IMG/VR virus record: IMGVR_UViG_3300014204_000132
Reading direction: 5' to 3' (one strand)
Source: a virus
Taxonomy: Duplodnaviria > Heunggongvirae > Uroviricota > Caudoviricetes
DNA: 37,187 nt
Shown piece after piece: positions 4,406 through 37,091 of this stretch. Each line of letters starts with the position of its first letter. The stretch's first letter is position 1. Under the pieces are notes generated by a model. The model did not search any database. It was not told where the DNA came from and saw only the letters and a program-made list of their open reading frames with translations. The translations under genes and the position numbers were made by a program.

Positions 4406-5149
4406 ATGATTGTTAAATTCAATAATTTTATTCTTGAAAAAATAGATATTAGAAATGATATCGATTTACAAAAAGAATATGATGATATAAACAAAAGATG
4501 TTTCAATAATGAATTGATAAATGTCCCATTATTATGGGTTAAAACCAAATCAACAGGCGGTAGAACTATTGGTAAATATTATCGTGATACGAGAAAAGTT
4601 GAAATTGAGAAAGTTGAAATTTCATATTTTTATGAACTGGATTATGAAAGATTTAGAAATATTCTGGCACATGAAATGATTCATGTTTATGTTATGCAAA
4701 CACACGGAAAAGATTATGGTGGTTCACACGGTATACATTTTAATGAATGGATGAGAAAACTTAATAAAATGGGTTTCAATATTACAGTAAAAGATGATGT
4801 AACCGAAATAAAAATGTCAGATGAAAATGATTTATCAAAAGCATTATTTGTTGTATTAATACGTTCTGAACGTTCTAATGAAACCAGATTTTCAGTATCG
4901 TGTTATAATGAAAATGCTATTACTGATGAATTTAAAGAAAAAATAATGAATACATATAAAGGTGATGCAAAATATACTCATAAAAAATATTATATCACAT
5001 TTATAAAATCAAAAGATGCTATATTAAAAAAATATCCAGTTAAACGAAATGTTAAACGGTATGAAGGTGGATATCAAATATCAGAAGAATTATATAATAA
5101 GTTATTGGATAACAGTGATATAGTACAAGAAACTATGTTTTTCGAATAA
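4406..5149 (+). CDS. SprT-like zinc metalloprotease
   Basis: ILAHEMIH (HExxH), downstream HGIHF, and upstream YDDINKRCFNNEL, which follows the SprT layout. Confidence 0.8.
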   Translation: MIVKFNNFILEKIDIRNDIDLQKEYDDINKRCFNNELINVPLLWVKTKSTGGRTIGKYYRDTRKVEIEKVEISYFYELDYERFRNILAHEMIHVYVMQTHGKDYGGSHGIHFNEWMRKLNKMGFNITVKDDVTEIKMSDENDLSKALFVVLIRSERSNETRFSVSCYNENAITDEFKEKIMNTYKGDAKYTHKKYYITFIKSKDAILKKYPVKRNVKRYEGGYQISEELYNKLLDNSDIVQETMFFE

Positions 5150-5151
5150 TA

Positions 5152-5280
5152 TTATTTTCTTTTCTTAAATAATGATTCACATTGCCAACTACAAAATTTA
5201 TAACCTTTTGGAACTGGCATACAACACCGTTGACATATTTTCCAGTCTATTTCTTCTTTACTTTTTGGTAAATTTGACAT
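5152..5280 (-). CDS. 42-aa zinc-finger microprotein (CxxC-x10-CxxxC, DUF2116-like); absent from the ORF track
   Basis: Manual translation gives MSNLPKSKEEIDWKICQRCCMPVPKGYKFCSWQCESLFKKRK. It starts 3 nt after the stop of the 5284-5808 gene on the same strand. Confidence 0.75.
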   Translation of the reverse strand: MSNLPKSKEEIDWKICQRCCMPVPKGYKFCSWQCESLFKKRK

Positions 5281-5283
5281 AAT

Positions 5284-5808
5284 TTAAAAATCAAATATTG
5301 TTTCTAATTTAGCTTTCCTAACAAATAATTTCAATTCTCTATCAGTTTTAAATATTTTTTTTAATATATCTTCAGATACTATATTGAGAATATTAGCTTT
5401 AATCAATGGGAAGTCTTCCATATATAATCTGAATTCACCTGAAAAATTTTCACCACCATTAAAAGTTCCAGTATTAAACCCAAGTTGAGTACTAAAGCAA
5501 TCGGTTTCACTAAAAAAATTATTATTTAAATTCTTTTTTGGAAGTTTTGTCCATTTACCTTTAATCCAACCTCTGAAGCCTAAATAATTTTTATTTGTCT
5601 CTTTTGCTCTCCAATCATTTCTAATGCCGTTTAATGGGTTATCATGAGAATTATTTATATATTGAAAAGTAAAATTATCCCAATTTTCAAATTCAACAAT
5701 ACCACCATGTATCAACTTTATATTGCGAATATAATTTTTTTCTAATTCGTTTAAATCTTTTGAATTTAAACGAGCTTGATTTCTCAATATATTCATTTCT
5801 TCGTTCAT
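5284..5808 (-). CDS. Hypothetical protein
   Basis: 174-aa ORF filling the gap, with no competing + strand ORF; no motif recognised. Confidence 0.65.
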   Translation of the reverse strand: MNEEMNILRNQARLNSKDLNELEKNYIRNIKLIHGGIVEFENWDNFTFQYINNSHDNPLNGIRNDWRAKETNKNYLGFRGWIKGKWTKLPKKNLNNNFFSETDCFSTQLGFNTGTFNGGENFSGEFRLYMEDFPLIKANILNIVSEDILKKIFKTDRELKLFVRKAKLETIFDF

Positions 5809-5884
5809 CTAAATCATTTTAAACAAAAATAAGAAAAATAATTATTAATTTAATATGCGTATAAAATTATTTTGTTTTAAAAAT

Positions 5885-5893
5885 TAATATATA
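5885..5893 (+). promoter_or_regulatory. TAATATATA motif (putative late promoter)
   Basis: Exact motif 25 nt before the ATG at 5919. Confidence 0.6.
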
Positions 5894-5918
5894 AAACAAA
5901 AGTAATTTTCAAAATAAT

Positions 5919-7694: not shown

Positions 7695-7712
7695 AAAATA
7701 ATATTATAAATC

Positions 7713-7874: not shown

Positions 7875-7890
7875 AAATTAAAAAATTTAA

Positions 7891-9132
7891 ATGGGTTCAT
7901 TATCAACAAACGAACAAAGAAAACTGGCATATTTTCATGCATTAAGTAAAACAATGACTGAGGGTACACAAGAAGTGTATGAAACTCGCTATAAGTCATC
8001 TCACAATGTTACATTAAATGAAGTATGGGCAGATAATATATATTTTGCTGCTGATTATTCTACTGCTGTTGCAGAATCATTGGTTAATTCAGCAGTAACA
8101 CTATTTGAACAAGTAGAAATGGATATGATTTACGGTTCAAATGGTCAAGCTTATTCTTATATTTCAGGTGGTACATACAAAGATTCATCTTATCCTTTAT
8201 TAGAACGTGGACAATTAACATCAGGTGCTACCTATATAAGACCTTGGATTGCACCAACTGATATACCAAACCCAACTACAAATGACCCAAGTAATGGTTA
8301 TACTGTTCGACTTTTTAGGGGTAACAGTACTGAAATATACTTGACAGAAGGTGCATGGGCGGTTGATTATTATGCAGGTGTTATTCACTTTGCACAAGGA
8401 TATACACCATCTGATATGGGATGGGGTGCTATAAAGGCTACATTTTTCCAATATTCAGGGAATTATGGTGCTTCTACTGATGCATTTACATCAGCACAAT
8501 TTAATTCTGGAACAAGTCAATTGGTTTTTAATTCAGGTGAAACAACTCAGACAATATTAGATTTAAGTTCGCTGAGTAATTTAAGTGGGTTTACAACTGC
8601 AATATTTGATAATTTAACAAATCATTTAATTTTTAATTCTGGTGGAACTAACCAAACTATTGTTGATTTAAGTTGGTTAAAAGATAATAGTGGATTTACA
8701 TCAGTTGAATTCAATTCTGGTAGTAATTATTTGATTTTTAATTCTGGTGGAACTAACCAACAGATAGTTGATTTAACAAGTTTAAAAAGTATTACTGGAT
8801 TAACCAGTTTGTTATCCAATTTTAATATTGATATGCCAGCCAATACCACAGATTCTGGTTCTACTTTAGCTTGTGGTGTAACATTATTAAATAATTCCAT
8901 AACCAATTCATATGTATCAGTTTATGTAAATGGTATACAAGTTACGGTTGGTGATAGTGTCAAAACGAAAGATTGTTATTTTAGTTCTGATGGTGGCACA
9001 ACAGCTAAACCATCTGATAACGTTACAATTGGAGATTCATTATATTGGAGTTATATTGGTAATAGTCCTGTTTCAGGTTTCGATTTAAATGCACTTACTG
9101 ATAAAATAACTTTTATATATTTGACATTATAA
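7891..9132 (+). CDS. Putative virion fibre protein, module B1 (paralog of 13341-15446)
   Basis: N-terminal ~195 aa align with ORF 13341 (EGAWAVDYYAGVIHF vs QGDWLVDNEAGVLTF); three 35-aa repeats; shared C-terminal domain. Confidence 0.6.
   Translation: MGSLSTNEQRKLAYFHALSKTMTEGTQEVYETRYKSSHNVTLNEVWADNIYFAADYSTAVAESLVNSAVTLFEQVEMDMIYGSNGQAYSYISGGTYKDSSYPLLERGQLTSGATYIRPWIAPTDIPNPTTNDPSNGYTVRLFRGNSTEIYLTEGAWAVDYYAGVIHFAQGYTPSDMGWGAIKATFFQYSGNYGASTDAFTSAQFNSGTSQLVFNSGETTQTILDLSSLSNLSGFTTAIFDNLTNHLIFNSGGTNQTIVDLSWLKDNSGFTSVEFNSGSNYLIFNSGGTNQQIVDLTSLKSITGLTSLLSNFNIDMPANTTDSGSTLACGVTLLNNSITNSYVSVYVNGIQVTVGDSVKTKDCYFSSDGGTTAKPSDNVTIGDSLYWSYIGNSPVSGFDLNALTDKITFIYLTL
8485..8799 (+). repeat. Three in-frame 105-bp (35-aa) repeats
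   Basis: FTSAQFNSG..LVFNSG...ILDLSSL / FTTAIFDN..LIFNSGGTNQTIVDLSWL / FTSVEFNSG..LIFNSGGTNQQIVDLTSL, starting at 8485, 8590 and 8695. Confidence 0.85.
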
Positions 9133-9650
9133 TGAAAAACTTCAATCAATACATCAATTATTTAACTGAGAATAAAACTAAAAAAGTTTTTTTAAATCAG
9201 CAATTTATAAAAGATTTTGAAGGGAGTAAAGTTGTTGATACACTTGGAAACCCAATATTAATGCATCATGGTGGTTCATATAGTAATGGTGATTTTAAAG
9301 GAACTGGTTGGTTTACAAGAAGTAAAAATGATGCTAAATATTATGCTAAACAAAATTTTGGGAATATAACTTCCGCTTATATAGTAATAAAAAACCCACT
9401 TTTTTCTGGTAATATAGCACATTTAGGTTTTAAAATGACAAAAGAAATAAAAGATTCTTGTGAAAAGAGGAATCTAAATAATGCTATAAAAGTTGAAAAC
9501 AGTATTATTCAATTTATTGAAACAAATGGCGCAGTATTAATAGCAAAGGATATTTTATGTGATGGTGTGATTGATTTACACGATGAACAAATAATTGATG
9601 TTGTTATTTTTGAAAGTAGTCAGATATTACAACCAGTAAAATATTTATAA
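9132..9650 (+). CDS. ADP-ribosyltransferase-like protein (ART-PolyVal type)
   Basis: SKVVDTLGNPILMHHGG, GWFT...AKYYA, AYIVIKNP, DGVI and VVIFESSQI follow the SKVVD..G.P..YHG / G.YFT / YL...NP / YDG / VVF...QI pattern. Confidence 0.65.
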   Translation: MKNFNQYINYLTENKTKKVFLNQQFIKDFEGSKVVDTLGNPILMHHGGSYSNGDFKGTGWFTRSKNDAKYYAKQNFGNITSAYIVIKNPLFSGNIAHLGFKMTKEIKDSCEKRNLNNAIKVENSIIQFIETNGAVLIAKDILCDGVIDLHDEQIIDVVIFESSQILQPVKYL

Positions 9651-9653
9651 ATA

Positions 9654-10721
9654 ATGATAACTAAATTTCACACTTTTATAAATGAGGCTGTCGATAATAA
9701 AATTATATTATATCGAGGTGATTCCACCTATATCGATAATTTTAACTATGAAAAATTTGAAGCTACTGCTATCTATGGTCTTGGTTTATATCTAACAGAT
9801 AATAAGCGAGTAGCATATACCTATACATTAAAAGGTGATAATTCTTCGGTTGTCACAGAGGTTTTTCCAAGTTCGGAAAAACAAAGGGATGCTGAATTAT
9901 GTTTTGTCATAGAAAAACTTCTAAATGAAGTCAATGGTACAAATATATCCGATGATGAATTATATGATATTTTTAAGACATTAAGTATTTATGAATTTGG
10001 TTATGGAAAAGAATTAATAGAAAGATATAAACAGGGTGATAAATTATTTTGGATGAGAAAAGACCTTGCTGATAAATTAACACCTGAAGAACGTGAAGAA
10101 AAAATTAAGGATGGTGGTTATATTTCAAATTCCAATATGGAAGAACGAATTAAAAAATTAGAAGATGTTCATAAAAAATATGATATTTTAATAAATAAAG
10201 CGTTGACTTATTATAAAACAGTTAGAAAAAATTACGATTTCTTATATGATGGTAATGAAGGCTGGAGAGTGGTCAGTAAAGAAAAAAACGTTGGACATAT
10301 TAGTGAGTTCTCGGTTAATCCAGAAGTAATAAATAATTGTTACAATGCAAACACACCTATGTCAGATGAAATAATTAGCATTTTAAGAAAAATGGTTAAT
10401 CGTTATTTGAAAAGTGAAAAAATGAAAAATTATTTAAAAAAACATTATTACTATAAATATAATTTTAAATATTTTATGTCATATATTACTGACCATCAAA
10501 ATAAAAATAATATAACTCTGGCTAATTTTTTATATGAAAATAGTGTTTTTAGAAATAAAGATACTCATTTTGAACCAAAAGATTGGAATTATTTCATTTC
10601 TGAAATGAAAAATTTAGGATATAAAGGTATTGTATACGATGGTGGAGAACATTTAAATTCACCAATAAAACATAAAGCATATGTTATGTGGAATTTGAAT
10701 GATGTGGAAAGAATAAAATAA
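9654..10721 (+). CDS. ADP-ribosyltransferase-like protein with a large internal insertion
   Basis: ILYRGD, YGLGLYLTDN..VA..Y, and C-terminal GYKGIVYDG...AYVMWN. Confidence 0.55.
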   Translation: MITKFHTFINEAVDNKIILYRGDSTYIDNFNYEKFEATAIYGLGLYLTDNKRVAYTYTLKGDNSSVVTEVFPSSEKQRDAELCFVIEKLLNEVNGTNISDDELYDIFKTLSIYEFGYGKELIERYKQGDKLFWMRKDLADKLTPEEREEKIKDGGYISNSNMEERIKKLEDVHKKYDILINKALTYYKTVRKNYDFLYDGNEGWRVVSKEKNVGHISEFSVNPEVINNCYNANTPMSDEIISILRKMVNRYLKSEKMKNYLKKHYYYKYNFKYFMSYITDHQNKNNITLANFLYENSVFRNKDTHFEPKDWNYFISEMKNLGYKGIVYDGGEHLNSPIKHKAYVMWNLNDVERIK

Positions 10722-10743
10722 ATATAACATAAATAAAAATCTT

Positions 10744-10775: not shown

Positions 10776-10786
10776 ATTTTTTTAAT

Positions 10787-10795
10787 TAATATATA
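10787..10795 (+). promoter_or_regulatory. TAATATATA motif (putative late promoter)
   Basis: Exact motif 18 nt before the TTG start at 10814. Confidence 0.6.
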
Positions 10796-10813: not shown

Positions 10814-11548
10814 TTGAAATATCTCAAAACATTTGAACAATATGATAGCGAAGAATTGAGAGGAAAGATTGGCGATACTTTCAATAAAGATGCTTTAAAA
10901 GATTTGGTTAAATTAGAACCATATAAAAATAAATTTAATTATGGTTCATATCATGGTAAGGATTCTGGGTATTTAAATGATTTAATTTACAATGCCATGC
11001 ACGGAAAAATAGATACCACTGGTATGATTGAAGAAATATACAAATTATTATTAAAAGAAATTCCAGAATTTAGAACATATAAAATAGAAAAAGAACATTT
11101 TGAAGATAATAATTTCTTTTTGAATCTTAAAAAAGAAATTCCTATAAAAAAATCCAAGTTGGATGATGAATATTCAATAAAAATAAATTTATGGATTAAA
11201 TATCACACTAAAAATGATGATATTTTCTCATATGAAGAAGATAAAATTCTTGTGTTATTTGTACCAGATATAACAGTTACAAGAACTTCTTACCCTTTAT
11301 ATAAAAATGATAAAAATAACGATTTAGGTGAAATAGAATCTGATAATGGTATGGATAATTTCATAAATAAATTACAAAAAAAACTGTATGGTAAACCAGA
11401 TAAAGAAGATATGGAATTTATTAAAAAGTTTGAAATTAATAAAGATAATTTAACGTTAGGAAATTTTTTAAAATTGTTACCAACTATAAAAAACAATTTA
11501 AAAGACTTCAGTCATTACGTAAATTATAAATATGATATTTTGATTTGA
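10814..11548 (+). CDS. Hypothetical protein with capsid-targeting-like N-terminus (TTG start)
   Basis: 244-aa ORF starting KYLKTFEQYDSE; no domain recognised. Confidence 0.65.
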   Translation: MKYLKTFEQYDSEELRGKIGDTFNKDALKDLVKLEPYKNKFNYGSYHGKDSGYLNDLIYNAMHGKIDTTGMIEEIYKLLLKEIPEFRTYKIEKEHFEDNNFFLNLKKEIPIKKSKLDDEYSIKINLWIKYHTKNDDIFSYEEDKILVLFVPDITVTRTSYPLYKNDKNNDLGEIESDNGMDNFINKLQKKLYGKPDKEDMEFIKKFEINKDNLTLGNFLKLLPTIKNNLKDFSHYVNYKYDILI

Positions 11549-15988: not shown

Positions 15989-17110
15989 ATGAATATCGGT
16001 ATTTCTTTCGGAGTCAATGATAATAAATTTAATATATGGTCAGATGGTGAAATTCAAAAAATTTTTTTTCTCTATTTTCTATTAAAAAAAATACCAGATG
16101 TAAATACATATATTGTAAATTTTGGTGTGCCAATTGATACTTTGGATACTGACATTCCAGATTTATTTAAAAATGTTGAGTTTGTAGACCCAGTAAATGA
16201 TATACATTTTGATTTGTTCATAGAAATGGGTAAAAAATTATCTAATGAGTATTTTACCGTATTAAAATTATGTAAAACAAAAATTGTATTATTTAAAATT
16301 GAAAATGCTTTTATTTCTGATTCGGAAGACATTCTTTTTGAGAATAAAAAAAGTATTATAGCATACGATGATTATGACGAAATATGGTCGTTCTCTAATA
16401 ATGAAAAATTAAATAAATATTATTTAGAAAATCTTTATAAAAAGGAAGTTAAATTCTTGCCTTATATATGGGATAATTTTTTCATTAAGAAATATGAAGA
16501 AAGTATGATTGATAATGATGTCAAACTACAATATAGTGATGTCAAATATAATAGGAAAAATAGAGGGGGTGTCGATATAACCATATTCGAAGAAAATAAT
16601 ACTATTTTAAAAAATTCACTTCATTCTATATTATTGGTTGAGAAGTTATACAATTTAAGACCCGAACTTATAGATAAGGTCAGAGTATTAAATTCTTATA
16701 AATTTTATAAAAATCCAAGATTTTTATCATTTGTTAACACATTAAAATTAAAACAGGATAATAAAATAACATTTGAAGAAAGATATACAACACCATTTAT
16801 TCTGAGTAATTATACAGATATAGTTGTATCTAATCAATTTGAAAATGATTTAAGTAATACATATTTTGATTGTTTATATACTAAATTCCCGTTAGTACAT
16901 AATTCTCCTAAAATAAACACTTTATATTATTATCCAGAATTTAATTTATCTGAGGGAAGTAATAAATTATTACAGGCCATAACAAAACATCAAAGTTTTG
17001 TCAATAAATACAATGACCAATGTGATAACATATTAAATATTTACTCTATTGATAATGAAAACATTATTGAAGAATATGAAAAGTGTATATTTAATATAAT
17101 TAAATCCTAA
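15989..17110 (+). CDS. DUF2827-like protein, divergent copy (putative GT-B fold)
   Basis: IWSDGEIQ, LPYIWD, IFEENN and DIVVSNQFENDL..TYFDCLY..FPLVHNS align with ORFs 19554 and 21199. Confidence 0.65.
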   Translation: MNIGISFGVNDNKFNIWSDGEIQKIFFLYFLLKKIPDVNTYIVNFGVPIDTLDTDIPDLFKNVEFVDPVNDIHFDLFIEMGKKLSNEYFTVLKLCKTKIVLFKIENAFISDSEDILFENKKSIIAYDDYDEIWSFSNNEKLNKYYLENLYKKEVKFLPYIWDNFFIKKYEESMIDNDVKLQYSDVKYNRKNRGGVDITIFEENNTILKNSLHSILLVEKLYNLRPELIDKVRVLNSYKFYKNPRFLSFVNTLKLKQDNKITFEERYTTPFILSNYTDIVVSNQFENDLSNTYFDCLYTKFPLVHNSPKINTLYYYPEFNLSEGSNKLLQAITKHQSFVNKYNDQCDNILNIYSIDNENIIEEYEKCIFNIIKS

Positions 17111-21185: not shown

Positions 21186-21198
21186 AAATATTATTTGA

Positions 21199-22323: not shown

Positions 22324-22325
22324 AA

Positions 22326-26554: not shown

Positions 26555-26570
26555 AAAAGAATTTTTTAAT

Positions 26571-27224
26571 ATGAATTTTACACATTTAATAGTAAGCAGA
26601 ATAAATATCCGATGGACTGAACATTCTAAAGATGAAAAATGGTTAAATAACCGTAAAACCATTCTTAATAATACATTAAGAGCATCAATTCAGGCTCAAA
26701 CAAATAAGAATTTTAAATTTGTAACTCTCTGGGGTTATGAACCCGAAGGTATGATTGAAAATGAATATACTATAAAGACTGAAGAAGTTGGATTAGAAAA
26801 TATTTTCAATGATATTGTACCTGAATTATATAAATTAATCGATGAAGATTATGTTTTAGTTACAAGAATAGATAGTGATAATTGTTTAAGTGATGATTTT
26901 GTTGATATACTTCAAAAAAATATTATAGAAGAAGCACCATATTATTATGATATTAAAAAAATGAATATATTTAATTTACTGACTAATGAAAAAAGAATTT
27001 GGAATGTTTCTAAAACCAGTGGATTTATTTCTGTTATGGAGAAAAAAGAGGATTTCATTTGTATACCATATAAATATAATCACTCAAAACTTGGTGAAGT
27101 TTATAGTGGTGTGGTTATTGACGATTTAAAAGTGTTGCTGAACGTCCACGAGGATAATGTAAAAGTTAAAATGATTGGTATACCAGCTAATTATGATATT
27201 GATAAATTTAATTTAAAACTATAA
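26571..27224 (+). CDS. Putative rhamnosyltransferase-family glycosyltransferase
   Basis: WL..R......TL.ASI.AQTNKNF and TRIDSD pattern. Confidence 0.65.
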   Translation: MNFTHLIVSRINIRWTEHSKDEKWLNNRKTILNNTLRASIQAQTNKNFKFVTLWGYEPEGMIENEYTIKTEEVGLENIFNDIVPELYKLIDEDYVLVTRIDSDNCLSDDFVDILQKNIIEEAPYYYDIKKMNIFNLLTNEKRIWNVSKTSGFISVMEKKEDFICIPYKYNHSKLGEVYSGVVIDDLKVLLNVHEDNVKVKMIGIPANYDIDKFNLKL

Positions 27225-27324
27225 AAAATTTTATTCGATTATTAAACAAAAATTATCATATTAACTATATATTTTATCACAGAACTCGGTTGTGTGAATA
27301 AATAATAAAAATTTAAGTTCAATA

Positions 27325-28122
27325 ATGAAAATATCATTAGTTACTGCTTATTATAATAGGAAACAATTATTCTTCAACACATTAAAATCTATTGAAAAAT
27401 CATCATTGAAGAAGGATTTAGAACTTATAGTAGTTGATGATGCATCAACAGATGACCAAAGGATTGAAGATTTTATCGATAAATTTGATTTAGATATAAA
27501 ATTATTAAGGATAGAAAAAAAAGATAAATGGTGGACAAATCCAAGTCTTCCATTTAATAAAGGATTTAAATTGGTTACTGGTGAAGTTGTTATCATACAG
27601 AATCCAGAATGTGTCCACATGGGTGACCTATTAAAAAATATTACTGAAAATATTAAAGATAATGTTTATTTAAATTTCGGGTGTTATTCTGTTGATGAAA
27701 AACTAACTTCTAAAATTAGTTATGTTTCTAAAAATGAATTTAATATACTTAAAATAAAATATTATATTGAACCTATGATTAATAGAGGTATAAATAGAGA
27801 CGGAGAAACAGCGTGGTATAATCATTCAAAGTATAGACCTCATCAGTTGCATTTTTGTTCAGCTATAACTAAAAAAGATTTATTTGATTTGGGTGGATTT
27901 GATGAACGATTTGCAAATGGAATAGCTTTCGATGATAATGAATTTTTGGTTCGAATAAAAAGAAAAAAAATGAATATAAAAATGGTTGATGAACCATTCG
28001 TCATTCATCAATATCATGGTAATACTAATTATAGTTCTAAGATAAATTTATTCAATAAAAATCGAGATATTTTTATCAACTATACATTGAAAGAAAATAA
28101 AATTAAAATACAGGATTTATAA
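27325..28122 (+). CDS. GT-A glycosyltransferase (paralog of 22326)
   Basis: AYYNR, IVVDDAS, QNPECVHMGD and GGFDERF..GIAFDDNE. Confidence 0.85.
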   Translation: MKISLVTAYYNRKQLFFNTLKSIEKSSLKKDLELIVVDDASTDDQRIEDFIDKFDLDIKLLRIEKKDKWWTNPSLPFNKGFKLVTGEVVIIQNPECVHMGDLLKNITENIKDNVYLNFGCYSVDEKLTSKISYVSKNEFNILKIKYYIEPMINRGINRDGETAWYNHSKYRPHQLHFCSAITKKDLFDLGGFDERFANGIAFDDNEFLVRIKRKKMNIKMVDEPFVIHQYHGNTNYSSKINLFNKNRDIFINYTLKENKIKIQDL

Positions 28123-28973
28123 TGATACCTAAAAGAATTTTTTTTTATTGGTCGGGTTCTGATTTATCTTGGATGAGATATATGACACTGTTTTCATTTA
28201 GACAATTTAACCCAGATTGGGACATAACTCTTTATATTTCCGACAATAAGAATAAGAATAAGTGGTACGGTAGAGAAGAACAAGATTTCTCTAATTATAA
28301 AGGGGTAAACTATTTATCACAGGTTGAAGAATTAAACATAAAAGTTCAAAAAATAAATTTACCAGATGATGTTAAAAACAAGGTTAAGGATTTATCACCT
28401 GTACATGAGAGTGATATATTCAGATATTATGAATTATTTTCTAATGGTGGAATATATGCCGATATGGACATTTTATTCTTTAGGCCAATTGATAAATTTT
28501 ATAAACAATTAATAGAAAATAATACTGATACACTAATTCATCAAGACACAGGGTTTATTACTATCGGATTCTTGGGTGCGGAAAGTGGTAATTCTTTTTA
28601 TAAGGATATATTAGACCATGCTTTAGACATAGAAAAGTATGATAACTATCAATCATTTGGTGTTGATTTAATTTATAGTATATACGGAACTAATCGTCAG
28701 AACCCATACATCATAGATAAAATACTACAAAAACATCCAGAATTAAATATTTTCAATTTAAAAAATGAAACTGTCTACAATTTCGACTGGACGATGATAG
28801 AATATAATAATCAATATGGGGTTGATATCAATAAATTTTCAAAAGAATCTATCGGGTATCATTGGTTTGGTGGGCATCCAATGTCACAGATGTTTAATAA
28901 TACTCTGAATGAAAAAAATTATGTGGATTATAATACAACGTTTTGTAAGTTGTGTAAAAATATTTTAAAATAA
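28122..28973 (+). CDS. DXD-motif glycosyltransferase (GT32/Gb3 synthase/OCH1-like)
   Basis: [10 protein letters not shown] and SDIFRY..L...GGIYADMD. Confidence 0.85.
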
Positions 28974-28974
28974 A

Positions 28975-29718
28975 ATGAAAAATAAATTTATTGTAATAGT
29001 ACCTGTTTATAATGCTGAACCATTCATTGAAAAATGTTTAAAATCTATACTAAATCAAACTTACAAAAATTTTGAATTGGTTGTAATAGATGATTGTTCA
29101 ACTGATAAAACCTATGAAGTAATTAATAAAGTTCATGCTGAATTTGGTAATTCTTTTAATGTATGTCAGAATCATATCAGAGTCGGTTCACCTCTGGCAA
29201 CTTTTATAAAAGGTATTGAATTCTTTTCTTTTAATAAAGAAGATATTTTAGTTACTGTCGATGGGGACGATTTTTTGTATGATAATTCAGTTTTCGAATA
29301 TCTGAATAACTCTTACCAAAATGAAAATATTTATATGACATATGGAAATTTTATTCCTTTCAGTGGAACATACGGTAAATTTTGTAAACCGATACCAGAT
29401 ACACAAACATATAGAAGAAGTGGTGCTTGGTATGCATCCCATCTTCGAACAGTTAAAAAGAAATTATTCGATTTAATAAACAAAGATGATTTAAGGGATT
29501 TTAATGGAGAATATTATAAGATGGCTGGTGATGCTGCATATATGTATCCTATAATTGAAATGGCTGGTAAGAATCATCTTTTATTTATTGATAAAGTGTT
29601 GTATGTGTATAATGACATGAATATTTTAAATGAGATGCATGTAAATACTAATTTACAATTAGAAATTGCAGCAGAAATAAGAAGTAAGACTCCGTACACT
29701 GAAATAAATAAAATATAA
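28975..29718 (+). CDS. GT2 glycosyltransferase
   Basis: [30 protein letters not shown] and VDGDD. Confidence 0.9.
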
Positions 29719-30527
29719 TGAATATTATAGTTTTTAGTAAAGATAGAGCAATGCAATTGGAGTTATTCATTAGAAGCTTCAATATATATGTTAAAAATCC
29801 AGATAAATATTGGATAAAAATTTTATACACATATTCTGATGATAAATTTAAAAACGGTTACGAAAAATTAATAAGTGAATCAAACGGAGATATATTGTGG
29901 AAAAAAGAAGAAAATTTCAAATCAGATTTAATAAATTTAATAAATCAATATGATGCATTCACTGTATTTTTTGTTGATGATATAATATTTAAAAACACGA
30001 TAGATTTTGATGATAAACAAAAAGAAATATTTGAACAAGATAATGAAATATTATGTAGAAGTTTAAGATTACAACCAGATTTAACACATTCATATGCATC
30101 TAAAACAAATATGGTTAATCCAATGTTCTTAGATAATAATATTTATTTGTGGAAAGGTGAAAGTGGAGATTATGGTTATCCAATGTCCGTAGATGGACAT
30201 ATTTTCAGAACGAATCAGATATTTCCCTATGTATTAAATTTACCTTATACAAACCCTAATTCATTTGAAGGTAATATGGCTATTAGACCAATAAATTTAC
30301 CAAAAATGATTTGTTATGATAAATCGATAATTATAAATAACCCTTGTAATAAAGTTCAAACAAATAATCCAAACTATCATGGTATTATTGATGTGAGAGA
30401 ACTTAATAAAAAGTTTTTAGACGGATTTATTATTAGTTTAGAAAATATTGATGGTTTAAAAAATAATGCATGTCATCAGGAAATAGATTTGATTTTTAAA
30501 AATAAAAATAAAAAAAATGTTACTTAA
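29718..30527 (+). CDS. GT-A-like glycosyltransferase
   Basis: IIVFSKDRAMQL N-terminus and FFVDDIIF (DD motif); cluster context. Confidence 0.55.
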   Translation: MNIIVFSKDRAMQLELFIRSFNIYVKNPDKYWIKILYTYSDDKFKNGYEKLISESNGDILWKKEENFKSDLINLINQYDAFTVFFVDDIIFKNTIDFDDKQKEIFEQDNEILCRSLRLQPDLTHSYASKTNMVNPMFLDNNIYLWKGESGDYGYPMSVDGHIFRTNQIFPYVLNLPYTNPNSFEGNMAIRPINLPKMICYDKSIIINNPCNKVQTNNPNYHGIIDVRELNKKFLDGFIISLENIDGLKNNACHQEIDLIFKNKNKKNVT

Positions 30528-31137
30528 TCTTGAAAATTTAATAAAAAAATATAATCTGAATTTAAAAGGTGTTCTTCATATTGGCGCACACTTTGGTAGG
30601 GAAATGGATGCTTATAAAAAAGCTAATATTAAAAATGTTATGTTTTTTGAGCCTTTACCTCATACATTTGAAAAATTAAAACAATATGTTGGTGAAAATA
30701 ATGCAATATTTGTCAATAAAGCACTTGGTAATAAAATTGGAAAAGCTGATATGTATGTTGAATATGATAATGAAAGCCAATCATCATCTTTATTAGAACC
30801 CATGTTACATGTAACACAATACCCAAATATTAAATTTAATGATAAAATTGAAGTTGAAATTGATAAACTGGATAATATACCATACAATCGAAATGATTTT
30901 AATTTTATTAATATTGATGTTCAAGGATATGAATTAGAAGTTTTTAAAGGTGCTATAAAATCATTGAATACAATAGATATTATAATGACTGAAATAAATA
31001 GAGCTAACTTATATAAAGATTGTGTATTAGAAGATGAATTGGATGAATTTCTATTAAAACATTACAACTTCAAAAGAGTTGAAACATTTTGGGCTGGTGG
31101 TACTTGGGGTGATGCACTTTATATTAAAAATAAATAA
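30517..31137 (+). CDS. FkbM-family methyltransferase
   Basis: LHIGAHFG.E, FFEP, NKALG and INIDVQGYELEV..GA. Confidence 0.9.
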   Translation: MLLNLENLIKKYNLNLKGVLHIGAHFGREMDAYKKANIKNVMFFEPLPHTFEKLKQYVGENNAIFVNKALGNKIGKADMYVEYDNESQSSSLLEPMLHVTQYPNIKFNDKIEVEIDKLDNIPYNRNDFNFINIDVQGYELEVFKGAIKSLNTIDIIMTEINRANLYKDCVLEDELDEFLLKHYNFKRVETFWAGGTWGDALYIKNK

Positions 31138-31143
31138 AAGATT

Positions 31144-31866
31144 ATGATATCATTAGCAATACCAACATATAATAGACATTTATTAACATTAGAATCTTTT
31201 AACCAAGTGTTAGATAACGATTTTATTGAAGAAATTGTAATTATAGATGATAATTCTATTCAAACTTATTATGATACTCTTAAAAATGAAATTGATAAAT
31301 TAAACAATACGAAAATTAAAATATTTCGAAACGAAAGAAATTTTAAGCCATTATTAAATAAAACAATAACAGTAGAACATTGTAAAAATGATTGGGTCAT
31401 TTTATTGGATTCAGATAACATTATTGATGATTCTTATATTAATATTATTAAAAGAATAGATGCGAAAGATGATATATTATATTGTCCAGAAATCTTATAT
31501 CAAAACACAGCTAAAAATACAATTTCTCTTAATTATAAAAACTTCACTGGATTAGATATAAATAAAAATACCTTGAAGAATTTTATACATATAGAATTAT
31601 TCGATGCACTTTTAAATACTGGAAATTATTTTGTCAATAGAAATAATTATTTAAAAATTTTAAAAAATAAAGAAATCGATAATGAACTGAGCATTAATGA
31701 TGCTTTATATTTTTCATATCTGTGGTTAATGGAGGGATTTAAAATTGAGGTAGTACCCGATTTATCATATATTCATCGTGTCCACAATAATAGTTGGTAT
31801 ATAACTCACACTAATGAATGTCAATTATCAACAACAAAAATATTTGAAAAAATAAGAAATATGTAA
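31144..31866 (+). CDS. GT2 glycosyltransferase
   Basis: ISLAIPTYNR, IVIIDDNS, RNERN and LLDSDN. Confidence 0.85.
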   Translation: MISLAIPTYNRHLLTLESFNQVLDNDFIEEIVIIDDNSIQTYYDTLKNEIDKLNNTKIKIFRNERNFKPLLNKTITVEHCKNDWVILLDSDNIIDDSYINIIKRIDAKDDILYCPEILYQNTAKNTISLNYKNFTGLDINKNTLKNFIHIELFDALLNTGNYFVNRNNYLKILKNKEIDNELSINDALYFSYLWLMEGFKIEVVPDLSYIHRVHNNSWYITHTNECQLSTTKIFEKIRNM

Positions 31867-32723
31867 TGAATATAGTTGATGTTCCATCAAAGTTTATAGT
31901 TAAAACAAATCATGAATATCCACCATATAATAAAAAGGTATTTGAAGAATATTTTTTAGATTATTTTATAAAAAACAAAATAGAAACTGAATATTTTTAT
32001 TTACCGATTCTTTGGACGAATTTGTATATCAGTCGGGATTATGGTAATACTGATATGAACGATATTCAATTGTTTTTAAATAGTCTTGATACATCTAAAA
32101 AATATTTTACCATTGTTCAATATGATGATGGTATTCTTCAAAATATAGAACATGTGGATTTATTTGTATTTGGTCAGGGCGGTGGTGGTAAAAAAGTCGT
32201 ACCAGAAAAAAACATTGGTTATCCAATACCGTTGAATTGTAATGTCAATCCTCATATAAATAAAAATAGAGAGCGTGATATTTTTTGCAGTTTTGTCGGA
32301 GTGATTAATGGTAGACATTTTATTCGGGAAAAAATAAAATTTTTATATGAAAATGAATTCATATTAAAAGAAAGGGTCGGATATAATGTTTTCATTGATA
32401 TATTAGAAAGAAGTGTTTTTTCATTATGTCCGAGGGGGTATGGTGCAACATCATTTAGAATTTGTGAATCACTACAACATGGTTCAATTCCAGTTTATGT
32501 ATATGATAAACCTTGGATACCTTGGATTGGTGAATTCGATTTTAATGATATTGGAATATTAATTTCTGAAAATGAAATCGAAAATATTAAAACAATACTT
32601 TGTTCTAAAACAGAAAATGATATAAAAAAATATAGAACCAATGGTGAAATAATATATAAAGAATACTTTAGTTTCGCTGGGTGTTCAAATCAAATAATAA
32701 ATAAATTAAATAAATTATGTTAA
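31866..32723 (+). CDS. Exostosin-like (GT47) glycosyltransferase
   Basis: RDIFCSFVG and SVFSLCPRGYGATSFRICESLQHGSIPV, typical of the exostosin C-terminal motif. Confidence 0.8.
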   Translation: MNIVDVPSKFIVKTNHEYPPYNKKVFEEYFLDYFIKNKIETEYFYLPILWTNLYISRDYGNTDMNDIQLFLNSLDTSKKYFTIVQYDDGILQNIEHVDLFVFGQGGGGKKVVPEKNIGYPIPLNCNVNPHINKNRERDIFCSFVGVINGRHFIREKIKFLYENEFILKERVGYNVFIDILERSVFSLCPRGYGATSFRICESLQHGSIPVYVYDKPWIPWIGEFDFNDIGILISENEIENIKTILCSKTENDIKKYRTNGEIIYKEYFSFAGCSNQIINKLNKLC

Positions 32724-33403
32724 GTAATAATGATATTAATGATATTTATAACAACTATGTTAAAATAAATTACACAATAGAATATACTAATAAATACGTT
32801 CCTCTACCACTTCAATATAATAATAAACAATGGAAATGGGAAGGGAAAGATTTTCCCCGAATCATAGCTTTGCTCGAATTTAGAGAATATATGTTAGAAT
32901 ATAATAAAACTTTTAATGATGTTTTATCATTCAACGGAGATAGCGACCCAGAATATGAATATATGAAATATAATAATCTTCATAATTTTAATTATGAAGA
33001 AAATGAAAAATATGATTTACATAAAATTGATTTAGACAAAAAAGATTTTGATTTTGCAATGACGAATCAAACAATTGAACATTTATATAATCCTATTTTA
33101 GCCATAAAAAATATTTATAATCATTTGAAAATTGGTGGAATTTTTTATACAAATGTTCCAGCAGACAATGTGCCACATTCAACACCATTTCATTTTTATA
33201 CTGGTATTACACCTGTTGGTTTAGGCGCAATGGTTAAATTGGCTGGATTTGATATACTTAAAATTGGACAATGGGGTAATAAGGAGTATTTTAGACAAAT
33301 GCACGATAAATTATGGTCAGATTATACTTATTCTACTCGTGCTGGATATAATGACGTGAAATGCCCTATTATAACTTGGTGTTTAGCTATAAAAAATAAA
33401 TAA
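32717..33403 (+). CDS. Class I SAM-dependent methyltransferase
   Basis: FDFAMTNQTIEHLYNP..AIKNIYNHLKIGG; motif I is degenerate (VLSFNG). Confidence 0.7.
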   Translation: MLSNNDINDIYNNYVKINYTIEYTNKYVPLPLQYNNKQWKWEGKDFPRIIALLEFREYMLEYNKTFNDVLSFNGDSDPEYEYMKYNNLHNFNYEENEKYDLHKIDLDKKDFDFAMTNQTIEHLYNPILAIKNIYNHLKIGGIFYTNVPADNVPHSTPFHFYTGITPVGLGAMVKLAGFDILKIGQWGNKEYFRQMHDKLWSDYTYSTRAGYNDVKCPIITWCLAIKNK

Positions 33404-33408
33404 TTTGA

Positions 33409-34086
33409 ATGAAAATAATAGTATTAGTTTTATCTTCTAATAATACCAAATATAATATTTTAAATGAAACGATAAAAAAAACTTGTTTTTCTGAAAATGA
33501 TAACGACATTGAAATATTTTATTATTACGGAAATTCTGATAAATTATATCAAGAAAATGAAAATATATATTGTCCTGTTGAAGAAACTGTATCTAATATT
33601 GGGAGGAAAACAGTTTCTGTGTTTGAATGGGTGTTGAATAATAAAACATTTGATTATATATTTAGAACAAATGAGTCGTCATATATTGATTTATATAATC
33701 TGAAAAAGTTTATAGAAAATAAACCGAGAACTAATTTTTATTGTGCCAACCCCATATTTGTTAATGGGTTGTGGGTAGGTGCTGGGGTATATTTTTTATC
33801 AAAAGACGTTGTTGAAATGGTTTCAAAATATAAACAAAATATACATCATGAATTACCTGACGATGTTGCATTAGGTTTTTTAATGCACGATTTAAAAATA
33901 TCCTTATTTGAAATGACAAAAGAAACATTGGGTACTTGGGATAATATTGATTTTTTTAATTTAACAGAAGATAAAATAGATTTTACACAATTTTATTATA
34001 GATGCCGTTGTCATGATAGAATGGATGATATTAGAATAATGAAAAAACTTCATGAAATGATAAAAAGAAAACACACACATGAGTGA
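33409..34086 (+). CDS. GT31/fringe-like glycosyltransferase
   Basis: FDYIFRTNESSYI, GAGVYFLSKDVV and PDDVALG. Confidence 0.65.
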   Translation: MKIIVLVLSSNNTKYNILNETIKKTCFSENDNDIEIFYYYGNSDKLYQENENIYCPVEETVSNIGRKTVSVFEWVLNNKTFDYIFRTNESSYIDLYNLKKFIENKPRTNFYCANPIFVNGLWVGAGVYFLSKDVVEMVSKYKQNIHHELPDDVALGFLMHDLKISLFEMTKETLGTWDNIDFFNLTEDKIDFTQFYYRCRCHDRMDDIRIMKKLHEMIKRKHTHE

Positions 34087-34855
34087 TTATTGTATTATAT
34101 TAATGACTAATAAGCCGTATTTAGAAAAAGCTTTAGATACGATAAATCAAATCAGGAAAATAGGACTGTATGAAAAAGATGTGGTATTATTAATTGGTGA
34201 TGATTTGAAAGATGATAATAATATTAAGAATGTAGAAAATTATAATACAATTATAAAATATTTTCCAGAATTTGATAGAAGTGATATAATCAAAGAATTA
34301 AGATATAAACCCATAAGCCTTGATGGTAGAGAGGTAAATAAAATATTTCAATGGCATAAAATTCATTGTTTTGACGTATATTTTAAACAGTGGAAAAAAT
34401 GTTTATATGTAGATAGTGGTATGAAAATTTTTAAACCTATTGATAAAATAATATCATTAGATTGTACAAATGTTTTATTGGCACATTCTGATGCGTATCC
34501 TATGTATGATTGGAAATTAAATGTGCAATTTGATTATTTTTATTTTAAAGATTTATATAATGAATTAAATGAAGAATATGATTTAAATATAGATTATTTC
34601 CAATCTGGTATCTTATTATATGATACTAATATAATAACTGACAATACTAAAACAGATTTGATAGAATTATCTTATAAATATATCAATTCAAAAACAAACG
34701 AACAGGGGGTATTAAATATATATTTTAATTGTATTAAAAAAATTTGGAAACAAATAAAAATAAAAGATGATGAAACCCATTACTACGATTATTGGGAAAG
34801 GTATAATTTGAAATGTAGTGATTATATTATGTTAAAGTATCCAAAAACAATTTGA
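34079..34855 (+). CDS. GT8-like glycosyltransferase
   Basis: KLH-like HKIHCF, CLYVDSG, FQSGILLYD and NEQGVLN. Confidence 0.7.
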   Translation: MSDYCIILMTNKPYLEKALDTINQIRKIGLYEKDVVLLIGDDLKDDNNIKNVENYNTIIKYFPEFDRSDIIKELRYKPISLDGREVNKIFQWHKIHCFDVYFKQWKKCLYVDSGMKIFKPIDKIISLDCTNVLLAHSDAYPMYDWKLNVQFDYFYFKDLYNELNEEYDLNIDYFQSGILLYDTNIITDNTKTDLIELSYKYINSKTNEQGVLNIYFNCIKKIWKQIKIKDDETHYYDYWERYNLKCSDYIMLKYPKTI

Positions 34856-34860
34856 TAATT

Positions 34861-35463
34861 ATGGAGCATTTTATAAAAAATTTATTTAAATACATAAACC
34901 ACAGAGACGGATTCTATATAGAATGTGGTGCAAATGATGGTGTATTTTATAGTTATACATATGAATTGGAAAAATTAAATTGGAATGGAATATTAATAGA
35001 ACCATCAATAAAAGCTTTTGATGAATGTATTAAGAATCGTTCTAAAAATAATTTTTTTTATAATTGTGCTTTAGTTTCTTCTGATAATATTAAAGAAATA
35101 TACGGAGATTTTGATGGTTCATGTATGTCAAGTGTTAATGGTGACAGATTAAAAAGACAGCCCCAGACAAAAGTGGAATGTAGAACATTGACATCTATAT
35201 TGAAAGAGTTAAATATAAGTAACATAGATTTATTTAGTTTAGATGTGGAAGGGTATGAGATGGAAGTCTTAAAAGGACTGAATTTTAATATTTATAGTCC
35301 TCAATATATTTTAATAGAAGTGTATGAAAATAATAAAAATGAAATTTTTTCTTTCATGACTAAAAATAATTATGATTATGTAGATAATATAACAGGTTAT
35401 AATATTACAGATTTTCCATATTGGGATGGTACACACAACGATTTACTGTTCGTTAAAAAATAA
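34861..35463 (+). CDS. FkbM-family methyltransferase (ATG 34861 preferred over TTG 34852)
   Basis: YIECGANDG, GILIEP and IDLFSLDVEGYEMEVLKG. Confidence 0.9.
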   Translation: MEHFIKNLFKYINHRDGFYIECGANDGVFYSYTYELEKLNWNGILIEPSIKAFDECIKNRSKNNFFYNCALVSSDNIKEIYGDFDGSCMSSVNGDRLKRQPQTKVECRTLTSILKELNISNIDLFSLDVEGYEMEVLKGLNFNIYSPQYILIEVYENNKNEIFSFMTKNNYDYVDNITGYNITDFPYWDGTHNDLLFVKK

Positions 35464-35473
35464 TAAATATAGG

Positions 35474-36718
35474 ATGAGTGAATACAAGAAAAGAACTAAA
35501 TGTGCAATTTGTGGTGGAGAAGAATTTGTTACGGTATTAAATTATGGTGAAGTTTCATTAGCAGGTTTTTTTCCTAAAGAAGACCAATTAAATAATATAA
35601 AAACCTATGAGCTTAGTTTATTATATTGTCCTACTTGTCATTTACTTCAATCTAATAGTATTGTCGAAGCTGATTATTTGTTTAAAGATTATAGGTATTT
35701 ATCATCAGTTTCTTTACAGAAACATTTTAATGAATATTCTAAATATTTAATAGAATATTTTAATTTAAACTCTAATTCCAAAGTATTGGAAATAGGTTCT
35801 AATGATGGTGTTTTATTAAAACCACTTAATGATTCTGGAATACTTGCTAAAGGATTTGAACCATCAGACAATGTTTCTAAGATAGCAATAGACAGAGGGT
35901 GTGATATAATACATGACTATTTCAATTTTGAAAATGCTCAAAAATATTGTGTAAAAAATAGTTTTGATTTAATTACAGCTTCAAATACTTTCGCTCATGT
36001 TGATGATATACAATCAGTTGTTAAAGGTATTCATTATGCATTGAAAGAAGATGGATGTTTTATTTTTGAAGTTCATTATGGTAAAAATATAATTGAGGAA
36101 TTACAATATGATAATGTTTATCATGAACATATTTATTATTATACAGTGACAGCTCTGAAATATTTATTTGATATGAATAATATGACTATTGTTAATGTTG
36201 ATGAAATACCATTACATTCTGGTAGTATCAGGGTTATTGTATTTAATAAAGTTGAGCCTGTAAATGAAAAAATAGTTCAAGTTTTAGAAAAAGAAAAATT
36301 ATTGGGTGTTGATACACCAAAATATTACGATGATTTTAAAAATAGAGTGCTAATTCACCAACACGAATTATATAAATGTTTGATTGGTATTAAAAATAAA
36401 GGTTATAACATTGCTGGATATGGAGCATCTGGTCGTGCAAATATGTTATGTAATTTCAATAATATTGACAATACTCTTATTGATTATATAATTGATGAAT
36501 CACCTGAAAGATATGGTAGGTATATAAATAATATCCCCATACTTAGTAGCGATAAATTAAATATTAATACAGATTATATAGTCATATTTGCGTGGAACTA
36601 TTCAAAAATGATAATTTCTAAACTTATAAATAATTATGATTTTACTTATATCATACCTTTTCCAGATATAAGAATTATTAATCGTATAGATGAGATAGAA
36701 GATATAAATACGTTATAA
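35474..36718 (+). CDS. NDP-hexose C-methyltransferase (Zn-binding N-domain, SAM domain, C-terminal domain); ATG 35474 preferred
   Basis: CAICG...CPTC, VLEIGSNDG, HEHIYYY and GYGASGRAN match the EryBIII/TcaB9-type layout. Confidence 0.85.
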   Translation: MSEYKKRTKCAICGGEEFVTVLNYGEVSLAGFFPKEDQLNNIKTYELSLLYCPTCHLLQSNSIVEADYLFKDYRYLSSVSLQKHFNEYSKYLIEYFNLNSNSKVLEIGSNDGVLLKPLNDSGILAKGFEPSDNVSKIAIDRGCDIIHDYFNFENAQKYCVKNSFDLITASNTFAHVDDIQSVVKGIHYALKEDGCFIFEVHYGKNIIEELQYDNVYHEHIYYYTVTALKYLFDMNNMTIVNVDEIPLHSGSIRVIVFNKVEPVNEKIVQVLEKEKLLGVDTPKYYDDFKNRVLIHQHELYKCLIGIKNKGYNIAGYGASGRANMLCNFNNIDNTLIDYIIDESPERYGRYINNIPILSSDKLNINTDYIVIFAWNYSKMIISKLINNYDFTYIIPFPDIRIINRIDEIEDINTL

Positions 36719-36756
36719 AAATGACAAAAGAAGAATTTTTTAATGTGTTAAAAACA

Positions 36757-36787
36757 TTGACATTGATTATGAAAAATATATTATAAT
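36757..36787 (+). promoter_or_regulatory. Possible sigma70 promoter (TTGACA-19 nt-TATAAT)
   Basis: Both hexamers match consensus, but the spacer is long and the DNA is very AT-rich. Confidence 0.3.
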
Positions 36788-36790
36788 ATT

Positions 36791-36799
36791 TAATATATA
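36791..36799 (+). promoter_or_regulatory. TAATATATA motif (putative late promoter)
   Basis: Exact motif 22 nt before the ATG at 36822. Confidence 0.6.
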
Positions 36800-36821
36800 A
36801 AATAAAATCAATATTAATATT

Positions 36822-37091
36822 ATGAAAATATTATCTTATACTAAATTTAATGAATCTGAAGATTCAACCAGATATACATATATGATGCTTAGTAGGCTTC
36901 AACAAGACTGTGATTATTTCCTTGGTCATGGTAATGGTGCTGAAAAACATTTATGGGCTGGTTCAGTTGAAGGTCAAATATCTGAAATGAGAAAACTCTG
37001 GAATGAACTTGAAATAAAACCAGAATGGATATCAAAAGAAAATATTGATGAATACGAAAAGAAAATGTTACAAGTAAAAGCTGGTGAATAA
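36822..37091 (+). CDS. LPD11 (large polyvalent protein-associated domain 11) protein
   Basis: YMMLSRLQQDCDYFLG...HLWAGSV..QI.EM..LW...KPEWIS.E.I..YE..M follows the LPD11 pattern. Confidence 0.8.
   Translation: MKILSYTKFNESEDSTRYTYMMLSRLQQDCDYFLGHGNGAEKHLWAGSVEGQISEMRKLWNELEIKPEWISKENIDEYEKKMLQVKAGE

Follow-up and report, generated by a model that had tools for sequence, protein, structure and literature searches.

The stretch of DNA considered here (the window; 37,187 nucleotides) is the minus strand of positions 294,298–331,484 in a 675,678-bp IMG/VR record (IMGVR_UViG_3300014204_000132; G000), which its sequence identifies as a megaphage of the huge, uncultured LR756501-type clade. Five genes of the window, coding for otherwise unrelated proteins, begin with a similar short peptide, here called the tag, and all five N-termini lie where the initial annotation had placed them, at 4406, 9132, 9654, 10814 and 36822 (Table 1). 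Its domain calls were borne out by Pfam, with the matches to SprT-like, ART-PolyVal (ART, ADP-ribosyltransferase) and LPD11 all above their cut-offs, and, as it had also stated, the motif is absent from the fibre and glycosyltransferase genes of the window. From the evidence set out below, we consider it probable that the shared N-terminal peptide is a capsid-targeting and cleavage tag of the T4 type, much expanded in number, which copies the repeat unit of a scaffold fused to the head protease. The five tagged proteins of the window are probably packed into the virion.

Table 1. Tagged genes, their tags and promoter-like motifs in the window
Feature	Position	Strand	Remarks
SprT-like zinc metallopeptidase, 247 amino acids (aa)	4406..5149	+	Pfam SprT-like 8e-14; HEMIH at residue 89
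Tag MIVKFNNFILE of the SprT-like gene	4406-4438	+	Ends I-L-E
ART-PolyVal ADP-ribosyltransferase domain protein, 172 aa	9132..9650	+	Pfam 7e-10
Tag MKNFNQYINYLTE of the ART-PolyVal gene	9132-9170	+	Ends L-T-E
355-aa predicted ART-fold protein with large helical insertion	9654..10721	+	Structure model
Tag MITKFHTFINE of the 355-aa gene	9654-9686	+	Ends I-N-E
244-aa protein, fold unassigned	10814..11548	+	Start codon TTG, not ATG; second tag type
Tag (L)KYLKTFEQYDSE of the 244-aa gene	10814-10852	+	Ends DSE, without [IL]-x-E
Stand-alone LPD11 domain protein, 89 aa	36822..37091	+	Pfam LPD11 3e-31
Degenerate tag MKILSYTKFNESE of the LPD11 gene	36822-36860	+	Ends NESE
TAATATATA motif	3787..3795	+	Heads the unit 3819-4400 plus 4406-5149
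TAATATATA motif	5885..5893	+	Heads the unit from fibre-like gene 5919 through 9132 and 9654
TAATATATA motif	10787..10795	+	19 nt before the TTG start of 10814
TAATATATA motif	36791..36799	+	23 nt before the start of 36822

The Tag Throughout the Genome

Open reading frames (ORFs) were called in the record by a simple longest-ORF rule, which gave about 1,136 and makes the counts that follow approximate. A scan of all N-termini found the motif enriched there genome-wide, on cargo that mostly has no known domain. The loose pattern [FY]..[FY]..E, taken at residue offsets 2–9, occurs in 58 genes, where its internal rate of 0.0012 per position would give about 11. The N-terminal matches share a tighter consensus, K-x-[FY]-x-x-[FY]-[IL]-N-E followed by N, D or S, and about 50 of roughly 1,100 genes start with K-x-[FY]-x-x-[FY]-[IL]-N-E. 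An iterated position-specific scoring matrix (PSSM) picks 38 genes at a threshold at which 0.4 false matches are expected, and subtraction of internal from N-terminal PSSM matches leaves an excess of about 40–50 genes. The consensus tag can be written M-(x)-K-x-[FY]-x-x-[FY]-[IL]-N-E; a second form, MKYLK.FE.[FY]..E, heads about 10–18 further genes, that at 10814 included. The two forms are linked by those homologues of the LPD11 protein that begin with MKNLKTFENFSNE.

The [IL]-x-E end is found in 32 of the 38 strict tags and, in the window, in those of 4406 (ILE), 9132 (LTE) and 9654 (INE). When 59 tagged proteins are aligned, the common part is only M...K.F..F.NE, and internal matches within these proteins are not enriched. 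The tag occurs once, at the extreme N-terminus. The window tags were scored with a leave-out PSSM, built from the tagged genes outside the window and compared with internal control windows. The scores of 4406, 9132, 9654 and 10814 are reached by only 0.01–0.08% of these controls: the tag of the SprT-like gene scores 8.7 (reached by 0.08%) and that of the ART-PolyVal gene 9.9 (reached by 0.06%; 16.5 in the PSSM set).

A T4-Type Head Module with a Protease–Scaffold Fusion

The genome codes for a portal protein that matches Pfam PF07230 (Portal_T4; 5e-68) and a major capsid protein that matches PF07068 (Gp23; 3.5e-27). Between the portal and capsid genes lies a single ORF of 801 aa (G000 545023–547428, minus strand), which occupies the place of T4 genes 21 and 22, the T4 gene order having been checked. 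The initial annotation had suggested looking for a protease like gp21 and a scaffold like gp22; both are present, fused in this one protein.

The protease assignment is based on PHROGs, Pfam family S80 and a pairwise alignment. Residues 5–251 match the head maturation protease phrog_207 (1e-26) and Peptidase_S80 (27.4 bits; cut-off 23.4), and in a BLASTP alignment of this domain with T4 gp21 (E 1e-4) the motifs GE..HP, VSSR.G and DAV are conserved. By our own count, the putative triad is His77, Ser133 and Asp154; the triad positions (His-Ser-Asp) of gp21 have been described (PMC5694885). A phmmer search with the protease domain against PDB sequences gave nothing meaningful, and the Pfam families Peptidase_S78, Phage_capsid (HK97) and Capsid_NCLDV have no match in the genome.

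Behind the protease domain, residues 261–470 hold 13 motif-bearing repeats, mostly of 14 residues (YSEYLAE-NVDNSIA, with variants that include FSEYIAEH and YSQYIAET). These repeats fit the tag pattern [FY]..[FY][IL].E and are nearly the core, YQEFIAE, of the T4 capsid-targeting sequence (CTS). In the whole proteome, 14 of the 60 occurrences of [FYW]..[FYW][ILV].E beyond residue 20 fall in the 801-aa protein (0.2 expected; Poisson p 2e-21), which is the sole internal concentration of the motif. In its scaffold-like tail, [ILV]-x-E sites number 40, where 13 would be expected. The array is also present in relatives: the corresponding protein of LR756501 (807 aa) has 14 motifs at 14-residue spacing, that of LR756504 has 11 and that of LR756500 has 2.

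Two ORFs outside the window deserve mention beside the head module. A 77-aa ORF (G000 415016–415249, plus strand) opens with two scaffold-type repeats (MTYSEYIVEHLDNSIAYAEYITEQL) and could code for a small extra core protein or carry a double tag. A 155-aa gene (G000 542406–542873, minus strand) bears a canonical tag (MFIKTNFNDFLNE) and a TAATATATA motif of its own; it is on the strand of the major capsid gene, a short way downstream of it with two small opposite-strand ORFs between, and has no Pfam or PHROG match.

Comparison with T4 and Other Giant Phages

In T4, the CTS, MKTYQEFIAE, loads the internal proteins, or any foreign protein to which it is fused, into the scaffolding core, and is then removed by one cut (PMC8442874; PMC3012670; PMC5694885). 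The megaphage tag is like the T4 CTS in being an N-terminal peptide of 10–13 residues on otherwise unrelated proteins, in its spacing (M-K-x-[FY]-x-x-F-[IL]-x-E) and, for most of the strict tags, in ending with the [IL]-x-E type of site that is cut by gp21, and the megaphage has a portal, a capsid protein and a protease homologous to those of T4. A PSSM made from megaphage tags only, when applied to all 268 ORFs of T4, gives its four highest ranks to gp61.1, IPIII, IPII and IPI, and the fifth ORF scores far below them. Of these, gp61.1 starts with MKTFKEFIKE, IPIII and IPII with MKTYQEFIAE and IPI with MKTFKEF..., the I-T-E site of IPI sitting further downstream. The sequence FGSFLTE followed by A in T4 gp23 fits the full motif, and we take this to be the maturation cleavage point.

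The differences from T4 are also clear. T4 has 3–4 tagged genes, whereas the megaphage has about 50 or more (4–5% of its genes); T4 has Ala on both sides of the Glu, whereas the megaphage mostly has Asn before it and Asn, Asp or Ser after it; and the internal proteins of T4 are basic, whereas the tagged cargo of the megaphage is acidic. In T4, gp21 and gp22 are separate proteins and gp22 is dense in the short [ILV]-x-E only (20 sites, against 3.5 expected), whereas in the megaphage the tag motif itself is the repeat unit of the protease-fused scaffold. Finally, the T4 CTS is an established signal, whereas the megaphage tag is a predicted one.

The T4 gene for gp61.1 (AF158101 18966–19130, minus strand) codes for a 54-aa ‘hypothetical protein’ in which MKTFKEFIKE is followed by D, and it outscores IPI–IPIII on the megaphage tag model. 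By its sequence, gp61.1 may be a fourth CTS-bearing protein of T4.

These comparisons bear on an explanation that we regard as improbable, namely that the peptide is an N-terminal signal for a process outside the head (chaperone docking, sorting to another compartment, or stability as a degron) and that its likeness to the T4 CTS arose by convergence through AT-rich codon usage. It is true that the residues most used in this genome of 27% GC are F, Y, N, K, I and E, and a complex prediction for the protease and repeats (residues 1–480) with the tagged ART-PolyVal protein, made without controls, gave no answer (score 0.00) and is evidence neither way. The null model, however, includes composition, and still gives about 11 loose matches against 58 found, and 0.4 PSSM matches against 38; the sole internal concentration of the motif lies in the head protease–scaffold protein; the tag model transfers to T4, where it finds exactly the CTS proteins; and the head module is homologous to that of T4.

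Another parallel is offered by the phages phiKZ, 201phi2-1 and SPN3US, in which S80 prohead proteases (gp175, gp245) cut head and ejection proteins at S/A/G-x-E, and many head-internal proteins enter the host (PMC5694885). Like these, the megaphage is a giant phage with a gp21-related, S80-matching protease that has a C-terminal extension and is predicted to cut after Glu. The propeptides of the three phages, unlike the tag, are long, individually different, and have a small residue at P3; neither a common short N-terminal address peptide nor a tandem scaffold array is described for them in PMC5694885, and the relationship of the portal and capsid genes is more distant. A full-text literature search found no paper linking a capsid-targeting sequence with megaphages or huge phages.

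The Tagged Proteins

Across the 59 tagged proteins, Pfam recognizes only LPD11, SprT-like and ART-PolyVal, all three in the window, together with one weak match, which leaves about 55 of the 59 without a known domain. A set of 56 length-matched untagged proteins has matches to 17 Pfam families, including NUDIX, HSP20, PolB-type exonuclease and cytidylyltransferase, and includes at least one ART-PolyVal gene, situated elsewhere in the genome, that has no tag. Housekeeping domains are thus absent from the tagged set, and the motif is not as common on replication or metabolic proteins, the circumstance that the initial annotation had named as one that would refute its reading.

The 355-aa protein has no Pfam match. 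Its AlphaFold2 model (predicted local distance difference test score, pLDDT, 86.9) found no PDB match at E <= 0.001 with Foldseek; in an exhaustive VIA-align search the best match (Z 11.9) was chain 9k3a_B of the cyanophage A4 pre-ejectosome, followed by diphtheria toxin, ParT, cholix toxin and poly(ADP-ribose) polymerases (Z 5–7.2 over 104–130 aligned residues). The chains of the A4 pre-ejectosome (9k3a) are described in the cyanophage A4 paper as ejection proteins packed in the capsid. On this model, the 355-aa protein has an ADP-ribosyltransferase fold. As candidates for the catalytic R/H, S/T/Y and E residues of such a fold, a sequence alignment of its homologues offers the Arg21 of LYRGDS, which hardly varies, a conserved YLT, and the Glu that follows an invariant GG (GGEH), for which two homologues have another residue. 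The 244-aa protein has no Pfam or PHROG match, and its model is weak (pLDDT 64.8), with only generic structural matches (Z <= 8.3).

Two groups of known proteins resemble this cargo. For the polyvalent proteins of phages and conjugative elements, Iyer et al. 2017 (PMC5512222) predict packaging within the capsid and delivery together with the DNA, and these proteins share with the window the ART-PolyVal, LPD11 and zincin-type peptidase domain types. A polyvalent protein, however, is one polypeptide of 2–15 domains, whereas the domains of the window are separate ORFs of 89–355 aa, each with its own start and tag; and the great majority of tagged megaphage genes have no polyvalent-type domain. 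The initial annotation had read the tagged genes as stand-alone polyvalent-type domains, each with a tag. This holds in the window but, genome-wide, applies to only three of the 59 by Pfam, plus the 355-aa ART fold by structure. The second parallel is T4 Alt, an ADP-ribosyltransferase which is packaged and cut by gp21 (PMC5694885; PMC5512222), the trimming taking place at I-T-E near its N-terminus (PMC5694885). The tagged ART-fold genes at 9132 and 9654 parallel this presence of an ART enzyme in a T4-type head. Unlike them, Alt is a protein of 682 aa that starts with MELITELFDE, without the aromatic CTS pattern, and the window genes belong to the ART-PolyVal family or to an unclassified ART fold, not to the Alt family.

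The nature of the cargo also bears on whether the tagged proteins would stay in the head. The motif could be no more than the place at which the head protease recognizes and cuts structural core proteins; the tagged proteins would then help to build the core of the prohead and be degraded or expelled like the scaffold, neither retained nor injected. We think this rather unlikely, although several observations agree with it: the scaffold has this motif as its repeat unit, the tagged proteins are for the most part small ORFans without an enzyme domain, they are acidic like scaffold proteins and not basic like the internal proteins of T4, and T4 itself has small core proteins, gp67 and gp68, that are cut into fragments (PMC5694885). 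Against this, at least four of the tagged window proteins are folded enzyme-type domains (the HExxH peptidase, two ART folds and LPD11), which make no sense as scaffold filler. In addition, the motif is single and at the extreme N-terminus, as in the ‘highly basic’ internal proteins of T4, which are cut once and kept (PMC8442874), and the tagged proteins show no enrichment of internal matches.

Promoter-Like Motif and Transcription Units

All five tagged genes lie in units led by the motif TAATATATA, as the initial annotation had claimed, with copies 27–34 nt upstream of 3819, 5919, 10814 and 36822. The gene at 4406 begins 6 nt after the stop codon of 3819, and the genes at 9132 and 9654 are the last two of a tight series that follows 5919 (7713, 7891, 9132, 9654). 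Genome-wide, the motif peaks 20–40 nt upstream of 126 start codons, those of fibre-like genes included, and 20 of 56 tagged genes lie behind it (odds ratio 5.1; p 5e-7). This distribution fits co-expression of the tagged genes with virion genes, as far as sequence can indicate.

Upstream of the portal gene, a 125-aa ORF (G000 552781–553158, minus strand) has a weak match to Sigma70 region 2 (E 4e-4, below the cut-off). By this match, the ORF might code for a late sigma factor akin to gp55, with TAATATATA as the motif that it reads.

A Signal in the Peptide Rather than the DNA

In T-even phages, the CTS-coding stretch and a promoter flank hypervariable internal-protein genes. With this precedent, the shared start of the megaphage genes might be a nucleotide-level element (the border of a recombination cassette, a translation enhancer or a downstream part of a promoter) and the peptide a by-product, and it fits such an element that tagged genes vary between relatives and that many lie directly behind TAATATATA. 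The coding of the tag makes this very improbable. At the anchor positions, F and Y swap, as do I and L, and synonymous codons occur at or above genome proportions: the aliphatic position is coded by TTA, ATT, ATA, ATC and CTT, and the terminal Glu by GAA 27 times and GAG 10 times (89 and 11% genome-wide). In pairwise comparison, the tag cores share on average only 61% of their nucleotides, and the pattern in the peptide turns up again within the scaffold gene, far from start codons, and in phages as distant as T4.

Homologues tell the same. In a 422-kb relative (L001), the SprT-like orthologue starts with MIKKFEDFLFE, against MIVKFNNFILE in the window, i.e., F, F and E are kept and other residues have changed. 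Across 14 homologues of the 355-aa protein that include the N-terminus, the tag varies and the hydrophobic-x-E end is kept just before the conserved LYRGDS, and five homologues of the 244-aa protein keep the start MKY[LI]K.FE.FD[ST]. Because the anchors survive synonymous and class-conserving codon changes as well as orthologue drift, these sequences indicate selection on the peptide, not the DNA. A smaller observation concerns the tag's terminal Glu, for which GAG is used in 10 of 37 cases (27%) against the genome-wide 11%.

The Genome and Its Relatives

The record has a GC content of 27.4% and 40 tRNA genes. In tblastn searches with the portal protein, LR756501 (735 kb) is nearest (62% identity), followed by LR756504, LR756502 and LR745206 (about 51%) and LR756500 (36%), then by the Lak megaphages (about 31%) and the T4-like phages. 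The window has no megablast match among GenBank phages. To our knowledge, no megaphage of this clade has been cultured. Origin from a giant eukaryotic virus, which the AT-richness, an aminoacyl-tRNA synthetase-like ORF and DUF4116 might suggest, was rejected, as there is no capsid protein of the nucleocytoplasmic large DNA viruses (NCLDV), the portal and capsid are of T4 type, and the relatives are of phage type. An alternative genetic code was also rejected, since with the standard code ORFs of at least 100 aa span 94% of the record. A tRNA with the anticodon TTA (ARAGORN; G000 37754–37827, minus strand) would read the stop codon TAA.

The tag is not confined to this record: within the first 210 kb of LR756501, 20 N-termini are tagged, where 0.5 would be expected. 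In L001, the ART-PolyVal (9132) and type-2-tag (10814) genes are missing from the syntenic place and two paralogous large ORFs of 530 and 574 aa stand in their stead on the opposite strand (L001 8154–9746 and 11076–12800, minus strand), which look like mobile insertions. This replacement implies that tagged genes turn over quickly. In Prevotella phage Lak-A2, a 417-aa ORF (L012 11501–12754), which comes after the portal gene and a 209-aa ORF, starts with MRTFINDILNE followed by A; this sequence hints that Lak phages use a related signal.

Several neighbours of the tagged genes in the window may be noted. Two fibre-like genes match the PHROGs ‘head decoration’ and ‘virion structural protein’. 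After the fibre genes comes a run of about 20 co-directional genes (19554–36718), many glycosyltransferase-like by their N-termini and none tagged; near it, 15989–17110 codes for a DUF2827 protein (1e-74), also without a tag. At 542–1135, a 197-aa protein made of DUF4116 repeats (8e-19) matches several PHROGs of unknown function.

Interpretation of the Tag

The reading of the initial annotation, that the peptide is a packaging tag, is strongly supported by sequence evidence: the head module, the scaffold repeats, the transfer of the tag model to T4 and the absence of housekeeping domains from the tagged set. The part that does not extend beyond this window is the polyvalent-type cargo.

Several observations weigh against a T4-type packaging tag. 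In a six-frame search of the genome, Pfam Peptidase_S77, the family of T4 gp21, has no match. The N-terminal region of the megaphage capsid protein lacks the full motif and has only a partial, conserved A-W-[LM]-S-E, in which K replaces E in LR756500. Two of the five window tags, those of 10814 (...DSE) and 36822 (...NESE), do not have the [IL]-x-E end, and the tag of the LPD11 gene scores at chance level with the ungapped leave-out PSSM. This last gene is kept in the tagged set only because its homologues P0004–P0008 bear canonical tags (MKNLKTFENFSNE, MKHVKLFEDFLNE) at the same place before the domain; other homologues have no tag, the protein starting directly with the domain. Judged against these sequences, the tag of 36822 is a decayed copy. 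The crude longest-ORF gene calls leave the tag counts only approximate. The mature tagged proteins are acidic, with a median isoelectric point of 5.4 (6.6 for other proteins), and, as the cargo of T4 is not, their state inside the head may differ. Finally, it is from sequence that we infer packaging, docking, cleavage after Glu, retention, ejection or injection, and any role in host takeover or anti-defence.

If the peptide is a capsid-targeting and cleavage tag, the following sequence of events can be proposed. The tagged genes would be expressed together with virion genes from TAATATATA-type promoters. The tagged proteins would then enter the core of the prohead, as their tag resembles one unit of the 14-residue repeat of the scaffold. 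The gp21-like protease, itself fused to the scaffold, would cut every repeat and every tag behind its Glu, so that the scaffold would be dissolved and the mature cargo left in the head. Later, the cargo would be ejected with the DNA: in the case of the window, a zinc peptidase, two ART-fold enzymes, the LPD11 protein and one unknown protein. The specific loading step, in which the tag would be a single scaffold-repeat unit and the cargo would be loaded by co-assembly with the repeat array and released by the cuts that dissolve the scaffold, is a tentative proposal, to which we give somewhat less than an even chance.

Implications for Megaphage Biology

If the tag works as it does in T4, the head-packaged, injected proteins of uncultured megaphages would become predictable from sequence alone. 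Each genome would then offer about 50 candidate effectors of the first minute of infection, most without a known fold and including peptidases and ADP-ribosyltransferases. The head-assembly logic of T4 (protease, scaffold and CTS) would extend to genomes four times larger. If the tentative proposal of loading by co-assembly with the scaffold repeats also holds, the packaged proteome of the whole clade, with genomes of 0.4–0.74 Mb, would be readable from sequence: 50 or more different proteins per phage, about 5% of the genes, mostly of unknown function. No phage virion is known to deliver a protein arsenal as large as this would be. The loading rule suggested here, mimicry of a scaffold repeat, is testable in T4 itself, and the tag could become a transferable means of loading large capsids with foreign proteins, a use to which the T4 CTS is already put.

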